Shown in pieces: positions 35,780 to 36,012 of a DNA stretch of 53,547 bases. Position 1 is the stretch's first letter, and every line of letters starts with the position of its first letter. Source of the stretch: an uncultured virus (IMG/VR IMGVR_UViG_3300029305_011880) (Duplodnaviria; Heunggongvirae; Uroviricota; Caudoviricetes). The notes under the pieces are model-generated. The model did no database searches, was not told where the DNA came from, and was given only the letters and a program-made list of their open reading frames with translations. The translations under genes were made by a program, and so were the position numbers. The stretch lies in IMG/VR virus record IMGVR_UViG_3300029305_011880. The stretch is one strand, 5' to 3'.

Positions 35780-36012
35780 GAAATGGCTAGGATTTTGATT
35801 TTCCGTTTCTTACCATTTCACTCCAAAGATAATCAGGATTACCGACTGGAGCATCCTGTTAATTTCGAGCTGAAGCCTAATAGGGTTGGCCAGCTCCGCT
35901 TCCATGGGACAATAAGGAAGTGTATTAACCCGTGTAAATATATATCGTAAATCGTAATTTGGAGACAGAAATCAATTTTGGTTGCAGGTTAACGCTTGCA
36001 ACCTCTTTTTTT
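35780..36012 (+). ncRNA. Putative structured ncRNA of unknown family
   Basis: GC-richer island with multiple nested helices and a 3' terminator (GGTTGCA..TGCAACC plus T-tract); no track ORF. Confidence 0.6.

Follow-up and report, generated by a model that had tools for sequence, protein, structure and literature searches.

We suggest that the DNA between a herA-like and a virD4-like gene of the window (the whole 53,547-nt stretch of DNA analysed here) encodes a small RNA. With a probability of about 0.5, we read the candidate as a lineage-specific, stand-alone RNA of ~230 nt that would be transcribed from the + strand and ended by its own intrinsic terminator. An earlier note on this DNA had proposed a stand-alone non-coding RNA or ribozyme, or an attenuator controlling virD4. 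The non-coding RNA remains the best reading, favoured by the lack of a conserved reading frame, the terminator, a conserved 5' segment of ~50 nt and an apparently covarying helix; the ribozyme and the attenuator are unlikely. Because only the 5' start, one long-range helix and the terminator recur in L002, a syntenic locus from a metagenome, this is a modest find and not a new ribozyme or riboswitch.

The herA-virD4 locus and its lineage

The candidate lies between two genes assigned by Pfam, on the same strand as both and directly 5' of virD4:

33877..35667, + strand: herA-like ATPase gene (Pfam DUF87/HerA, 3.6e-19; PADLOC HerA models)
35669..35714, + strand: intrinsic terminator that closes the herA operon and bounds the unit on its upstream side (16-pair stem at 35669-35704 and T-run; terminator scan)
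35778..36012, + strand: candidate small RNA, ~230 nt (putative 5' end; 3' end at the U-tract of its terminator)
36186..38108, + strand: virD4-like coupling protein gene (Pfam T4SS-DNA_transf, 5.4e-65; GGAGG at 36175-79)

The earlier note had described a GC-richer island in AT-rich intergenic DNA, and this is borne out by a GC content of 0.43-0.46 in 35800-35949 vs 0.17 on either side; ~75 nt of 17-23% GC DNA separate the candidate RNA from the herA terminator. It had also placed the region between the herA terminator and a terminator of its own, and a scan of the + strand recovered both (35669-35704; 35980-36003 followed by a T-run), against 0.2 intrinsic terminators expected from shuffles. 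Composition alone is nevertheless no sign of an RNA here, since the window's other two GC-rich intergenic islands are not RNAs but genes for small proteins, each with a strong ribosome-binding site. Two small hydrophobic proteins encoded in the window are paralogous (61 aa at 29853-30038 on the + strand, 53 aa at 40708-40869 on the minus strand; 44% identical); at the N terminus both have K-x-A-I-x-G-E-x-G-G-P-(S/T)-V-E, and a stretch resembling a membrane helix comes next. Neither matched a Pfam family, and we presume a resemblance to proteins of the pilin or Flp type. Their genes, each a GC-rich island in an AT-rich spacer, bracket the block of Mre11/Rad50-like, herA and virD4 genes.

Upstream of the candidate, the operon at 30160-35667 resembles the archaeal Mre11-Rad50-HerA set. 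In the 809-aa product of its first gene, a calcineurin-like phosphoesterase is fused to the N-terminal half of an SMC/Rad50-type ATPase. Next come two small proteins without a family (88 and 128 aa) and a 214-aa piece that models of the C-terminal ATPase half match (AAA_15, LmuB and AriA); HerA is last. This gene order is kept in L002, and NurA was not recognised in the operon. We make no defence-system assignment for the neighbouring genes, because PADLOC returned only generic ATPase and HerA models. Apart from virD4, no standard set of type IV secretion genes was recognised in the window. On the minus strand at 42687-49383, three PcfJ-like proteins (449, 477 and 461 aa) are spaced by two proteins without a Pfam family (389 and 381 aa).

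Housekeeping genes for RecA, RNase R, RecD2, a topoisomerase, HU and signal peptidase I are present in the window, and beside them stand a protein of >1,560 aa (window 1-4827) and ~20 further ORFs without a Pfam family at E <= 0.001. The window appears to be a chromosomal segment from a lineage that is poorly characterised. Metagenomic relatives of its RecA are 81-94% identical, after which identity drops to ~60%, at matches that bear Clostridia, Oscillospiraceae or Erysipelotrichaceae names; because of this fall beyond the metagenomes, the organism would belong to an under-sampled Bacillota lineage. Sequencing runs with window DNA (13 rows listed) come from animal faeces or gut metagenomes, and none is recorded as RNA.

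Predicted fold and folding stability

Folding of 35770-36015 (+ strand) in ViennaRNA, unconstrained, gave minimum-energy and centroid structures with a 5' hairpin, a closing stem, three enclosed hairpins and the terminator. Together with a further helix segment, P1, that competes with the 5' hairpin, the parts of the candidate are:

35780..35819, + strand: 5' hairpin of the minimum-energy fold, GAAATGG 35780-86 / CCATTTC 35813-19 (pair probability ~0.81)
35815..35827, + strand: 5' strands of the two-part long-range helix, P1 ATTTC 35815-19, bulged A 35820, P2 CTCCAAA 35821-27
35828..35957, + strand: GC-richer interior with three hairpins (35834-58, 35867-96, 35898-921) and an AU-rich tail (from the fold; not conserved in L002)
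35958..35972, + strand: 3' strands of the long-range helix, P2 TTTGGAG 35958-64, bulge ACA 35965-67, P1 GAAAT 35968-72
35980..36012, + strand: the candidate's intrinsic terminator, a 10-pair stem with G-U pairs, a 4-nt loop and a T-run (scan; pair probabilities 0.89-1.0)

Every helix listed in the earlier note could be read base by base on the + strand, in agreement with the unconstrained fold; the enclosed ones are CAGGAT 35834-39/ATCCTG 35853-58, GAGCTG 35867-72/CAGCTC 35891-96 and GCTTCC 35898-903/GGAAGT 35916-21 (one G-U). The partner sequences of its two proposed pseudoknots are likewise where it had placed them, TTGATTTT at 35795-802 and GAAATCAA at 35968-75 for one, ATGGG or GGGTT with AACCCGT for the other. 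P2 is the closing stem of that note, with pair probabilities mostly >=0.9. P1 reaches only ~0.18, because CCATTTC also pairs with the 5' end in the minimum-energy 5' hairpin; the fold that contains P1 lies 0.8 kcal/mol above the minimum and has the overall architecture of the L002 fold. An alternative 5' hairpin, 35778-86 with 35803-11, is less favourable by only 0.8 kcal/mol, and the window has two near-isoenergetic folds, of -65.1 and -64.3 kcal/mol. G-U pairs are used in the terminator and in the 5' hairpin, and those of the terminator fit transcription of the + strand.

The candidate's folding stability is only moderately above chance. Its fold z-score is -3.35 with the terminator (1/200 shuffles as stable) and -2.16 without it (4/200), and the minus strand gives -1.74 (8/200). 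We compared these values with a background of 100 windows of 235 nt from positions 1-17.4 kb, both strands, in which the mean z was -1.18, 26 windows had z <= -2, six reached -3 and three reached -3.35; recomputed in the background script, the candidate has a z of -2.85. Stability alone does not single out the candidate in this genome, since background windows reach equal z (a tail of 3-26%). With GC-richer intergenic islands that are mostly small, highly hydrophobic protein genes and with fold z-scores that are heavy-tailed in the background, neither signal can be trusted on its own here. The strongest folding signal of the background scan (z -7.0 and -5.9) is a perfect 13-nt palindrome pair, 9217-9229 / 9234-9246 (window 9200-9256); with convergent genes on either side, this is probably a terminator for both directions.

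Comparison with a syntenic metagenome locus

VirD4 has many metagenomic relatives, the closer of which are 71-95% identical and are found mostly in ENA and Logan contigs. Among the at least 8 metagenome loci matched in an alignment-based scan, only L002 (HerA 60% and VirD4 73% identical) has the herA-virD4 arrangement. L003 and L005 have <100 nt present upstream of virD4, and L004 and L006 (VirD4 62% identical) have a divergent gene upstream at a 167-nt spacer, with no herA and no such element; a motif shared by the latter two upstream of virD4, ATATATCG..TAAATC, is too common in AT-rich DNA to count. A HerA scan of genome contigs returned only L001, an archaeal locus at 30% identity and irrelevant here. 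In viral contigs, the VirD4 query gave no match as a pattern and 8 loci as an alignment, all <=38% identical and non-syntenic, and a DNA pattern built from two motifs common to the window and L002 had 0 matches. The candidate region had no blastn match among 72,556 plasmid records or in phages, and the window contains no further copies of it. Four sequencing runs that contain part of the window were compared with it at 80% likeness; their pieces over the RNA are identical to the window and so provide no variants for covariation. Huge depths at 35976-36036 and two apparent 'joints' that skip 409-415 bases (one contig each, the shorter side covering 21 letters) resemble cross-matches of low-complexity sequence, and we gave them no weight.

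L002 parallels the window in gene order, with genes of 88, 124, 214 and 595 (HerA) aa, a 650-nt spacer, VirD4 and a 211-aa gene, and its proteins are 41-73% identical to those of the window. Within its spacer we find the herA terminator, AT-rich DNA, a GC-richer stretch of ~200 nt, a + strand terminator, AT-rich DNA with a promoter-like site, and virD4. The GC-richer stretch is milder than in the window (0.32-0.35 vs 0.13-0.26). The herA terminator of L002 has only 5 pairs and stands ~270 nt from the RNA-like stretch. Like the window's same-strand terminator at 35980-36003 with its T-run, an intrinsic terminator at 4144-4170 (+ strand) closes the stretch at the matching place, with a stem of unrelated sequence; such a 3' end is what a small RNA gene would be expected to carry. 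At 3663-3950, L002 has ~240 extra AT-rich bases before the RNA-like stretch that have no counterpart in the window and contain a spurious-looking 81-aa frame and an A/T hairpin.

The two loci have diverged to the point of saturation at the four-fold degenerate sites of three flanking genes (141/345 identical, 0.41 vs 0.37 expected from composition), and the intergenic region after virD4 is unalignable between them (z -0.34). Despite this, the whole RNA region is similar to L002 3958-4178 with a z of 4.0 (0/300 shuffles as similar, 1/300 in a repeat), and from this comparison we take the region to be under constraint. The similarity is highest at the 5' end:

35778..35827, + strand: conserved 5' segment, AAATGGC(T)AGGA and the 5' hairpin (similarity z 4.3, 0/300 shuffles)

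The best local alignment in this segment has 22 matching positions over 26 columns. The interior is at chance (z 0.4; 101/300 shuffles) and has large insertions or deletions in one locus relative to the other, the 3' part has a z of 1.45 (30/300), and negative controls gave z of -1.4 and 1.0 (293/300 and 51/300). A conserved segment within an otherwise drifting sequence is a feature of small RNAs, and these first ~50 nt may act as a seed.

The multi-helix junction that the earlier note had stressed is not conserved. A covariance model of the window's fold, run unfiltered, did not match the L002 spacer at E <= 10, the pair as aligned by MAFFT reached only -8.15 kcal/mol in RNAalifold, and the L002 stretch folds as a long rod, so the three-hairpin junction has not been kept; blastn and nhmmer detected no similarity between the candidate and L002. 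This loss argues against a ribozyme or a ligand-binding aptamer. The L002 counterpart has a fold z of -3.53 with its terminator and -2.92 without, and its minus strand folds equally well (z -3.62).

A long-range helix does recur. The minimum-energy fold of L002 closes its interior by two stacked helices, GTGATT/AATCAC and CCCTT/AAGGG, between which a single A is bulged in the 5' strand and three bases in the 3' strand. With the pairs aligned on the bulge, both members differ between the window and L002 in 7 of the 10, three pairs are the same and none is broken. A search of each real sequence for Watson-Crick stacks of 5 bp, a 1-nt/3-nt bulge and 5 bp with a span of >=100 nt found a single one, in both loci just 3' of the 5' hairpin and just 5' of the terminator; from the end of its 3' strand to the terminator stem there are 7 nt in the window and 2 nt in L002. 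This exact geometry arose in 7/400 shuffles of the window and 2/400 of L002. With any of 15 bulge geometries allowed, a stack was present in 41/500 and 56/500 shuffles, and a geometry common to the shuffled pair in 0/500. The test was defined after the helix had been seen and draws on two sequences only, a bias that the wider null of 15 geometries reduces and does not remove, so we regard the evidence that the closing helix covaries as good but not conclusive.

Two further stretches bear on where transcription of the RNA and of virD4 might start:

35741..35771, + strand: possible promoter of the RNA, TTCCGA, 19-nt spacer, TATTAT (read from the sequence; putative and weak)
36072..36102, + strand: likely promoter of virD4, TATAAT at 36097-36102 inside the conserved ATAATAATTT (putative, read from the sequence)

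At the place aligned with the possible RNA promoter, L002 has TTCCCA, 19 nt and TGTTAT. A consensus promoter scan did not list the 35741..35771 site, and the 75 nt upstream of the RNA are not significantly similar between the loci (z ~1). The spacer between the RNA's terminator and virD4 is similar, with a z of 3.2 (2/300 shuffles), and in both loci ATAATAATTT, with TATAAT or AATAAT, stands 75-85 nt before the virD4 start and 3' of the RNA's terminator. Given this conserved -10 in a significantly similar spacer, virD4 probably has its own promoter downstream of the terminator. The aligned site in L002, TTGTCA-17-AATAAT, is listed by the scan, as is a second promoter-like site of the window, TTGCAA-18-TATAAT at 35996-36025. 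In the window, the AT-rich spacer between the RNA's terminator and the virD4 start codon is ~170 nt long.

Readings of the element

Six-frame comparison with L002 and the Pfam search revealed no conserved reading frame, and by these tests we consider the candidate to be non-coding. A 55-aa frame at 35783-35950 has no Shine-Dalgarno sequence and no Pfam match, and the L002 counterpart has stops in all six frames and no peptide similarity to the window. We rejected a leaderless small peptide from the conserved ATGGC, which stops after 7 codons in L002, and a type I toxin-antitoxin system, as the region's 31-55-aa ORFs have neither a Shine-Dalgarno sequence nor an L002 counterpart. A CsrA-type sponge was also set aside, with GGA motif counts near expectation by eye, and no conserved target emerged from RNAduplex predictions on 49 translation-initiation regions, in which the duplexes were unrealistically long.

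A check against the covariance models of Rfam found no known family, as the earlier note had expected. Rfam 15 (4227 models, judged by each family's gathering threshold) gave 0 matches across the whole window. At E <= 10 on 35600-36250 there were 10 matches, two of which touch the candidate: FHbp_thermometer at 16.7 bits vs a threshold of 104, and Six3os1_3 at 11.8 vs 40. Matches to L20_leader and snoR31 (E 0.006-0.12) cover only the herA terminator hairpin, far below gathering scores, and were dismissed. ARAGORN found 0 tRNA or tmRNA genes in the window, and with Rfam 15 giving no credible match, the earlier view that this is not a tRNA, tmRNA, 6S RNA or common riboswitch is upheld. For 6S RNA, there is no Rfam match at E <= 10, and the window fold is a junction and not a rod (the L002 fold is rod-like). 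Known self-cleaving ribozyme classes have no Rfam match even at E <= 10 on 35600-36250. The window's fold shares a multi-helix junction with the ribozymes and large structured RNAs of Rfam 15, but this junction is absent from L002 and there is no match at E <= 10; a self-cleaving core kept between the loci was thus not found, and a ribozyme or riboswitch is unlikely.

Trans-acting small RNAs that end at a terminator, such as RoxS/RsaE and SR1, are known in Bacillota. Like these, the candidate is intergenic, within 100-250 nt, non-coding and provided with its own intrinsic terminator; a short segment of it is conserved while the rest drifts, and it keeps its place between the same two genes. 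Unlike them, it has no Rfam family, no recognised C-rich seed motif and no named target, and is represented by two loci only.

Its position upstream of virD4 could also be that of a cis-acting leader, an attenuator or riboswitch whose transcript would start before 35780, whose terminator at 35980-36012 would gate read-on into virD4 and whose long-range helix would be the P1 of a sensor. Riboswitches and attenuators do share with the candidate a long-range closing helix beside an intrinsic terminator (the 3' strand of P1/P2 ends within 7 nt of the terminator stem in the window and 2 nt in L002, an arrangement kept in both loci), a same-strand gene directly downstream and two near-isoenergetic folds. 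The domain enclosed by the helix, where an aptamer would lie, is however not conserved (z 0.4), and the two loci fold differently; in the one relative, L002, neither the covariance model nor RNAalifold recovered a sensor core. No riboswitch or leader family of Rfam matches, and antiterminator pairings visible by eye are only 4-5 bp. The attenuator idea is further weakened by the ~170-nt AT-rich spacer, with its conserved promoter-like -10, between the terminator and virD4, and the 167-nt spacers of L004 and L006 lead to a divergent gene and hold no such element. We judge a leader of this kind improbable. A functionless origin is also unlikely, if somewhat easier to entertain: the stretch would be decaying intergenic DNA, the remnant of a lost gene or insertion, GC-richer by chance, with a back-up terminator that insulates virD4 from herA read-through. 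Such decay would fit a stability that is unexceptional against the genome background, an unconserved interior with large insertions and deletions, the failure of blastn, nhmmer and the covariance model to find the element, the ~240 extra bases of the L002 spacer and an L002 fold without strand asymmetry. It would not explain why the first ~50 nt are similar (0/300 shuffles) although synonymous sites show saturation and the intergenic region after virD4 cannot be aligned, or why the geometry of the long-range helix is kept through 7 two-sided changes, and no frame or protein similarity is left to mark a lost gene.

Read-through of the herA terminator would make the element a 3' UTR of the herA operon, or a small RNA processed from it, with no promoter of its own. 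The presumed RNA promoter is weak and not significantly conserved, and the 5-pair herA terminator of L002 might let transcription pass; but the window's herA terminator is strong (16 pairs and a T-run), and ~75 nt of 17-23% GC DNA, or ~270 nt in L002, would have to be crossed before the element, which leaves this origin with little to recommend it. We think it very improbable that the helices act in single-stranded DNA, whether at an origin of transfer or at a site of single-strand initiation. The element adjoins virD4, PcfJ-like and topoisomerase genes are present in the window, and complementarity alone cannot separate RNA from single-stranded DNA. Against such a role, a Pfam scan of 50 ORFs revealed no relaxase family, the 72,556 plasmid records gave no blastn match, a canonical terminator of stem and T-run lies on the coding strand in both loci, and the terminator and the 5' hairpin use G-U pairs.

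A stand-alone small RNA remains our preferred reading. Its transcription would start near 35778-35783, in the AT-rich stretch that follows the herA terminator, and, as the sequence features indicate, end at the terminator at 35980-36012, before the promoter-like site of virD4. The RNA would have a hairpin at each end, that of the 5' segment and that of the terminator, and between them a variable interior closed by the two-part helix (35815-19/35968-72 and 35821-27/35958-64). The terminator, the closing helix and the 5' segment of ~50 nt appear to be under selection, and the three hairpins of the interior do not. Together, the closing helix and the hairpins at either end may give a compact, nuclease-resistant body, from which the conserved 5' segment could contact a partner, an mRNA or a protein, in the manner of a riboregulator. 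The RNA gene would be specific to a poorly sampled gut Bacillota lineage. A bolder version, in which the element belongs to an undescribed class of structured RNA that partners the herA-virD4 translocase locus, tuning the coupling-protein gene or binding an ATPase, with the 5' segment and closing helix as its core and a variable interior, we consider improbable.

The 'GC-IGR' screens of the Breaker laboratory (PMC6429828, PMC8632094, PMC11109978, PMC8723152) look for long intergenic regions that are GC-richer than their surroundings in AT-rich genomes, and the candidate resembles their targets in just this respect. The main texts of PMC11109978 and PMC8632094 contain no VirD4, conjugati-, HerA, TraG or 'type IV secretion', and among the matches listed for literature on VirD4-linked small RNAs or conjugation in Clostridia nothing relevant appeared.

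The candidate opens no new class of mechanism, the part of its fold that looked like a ribozyme or riboswitch not being conserved. If real, it would add a lineage-specific small RNA to gut bacteria known only from metagenomes, whose RecA is ~60% identical to that of named relatives, and the herA-RNA-virD4 arrangement could guide work on the control of DNA transfer or processing.
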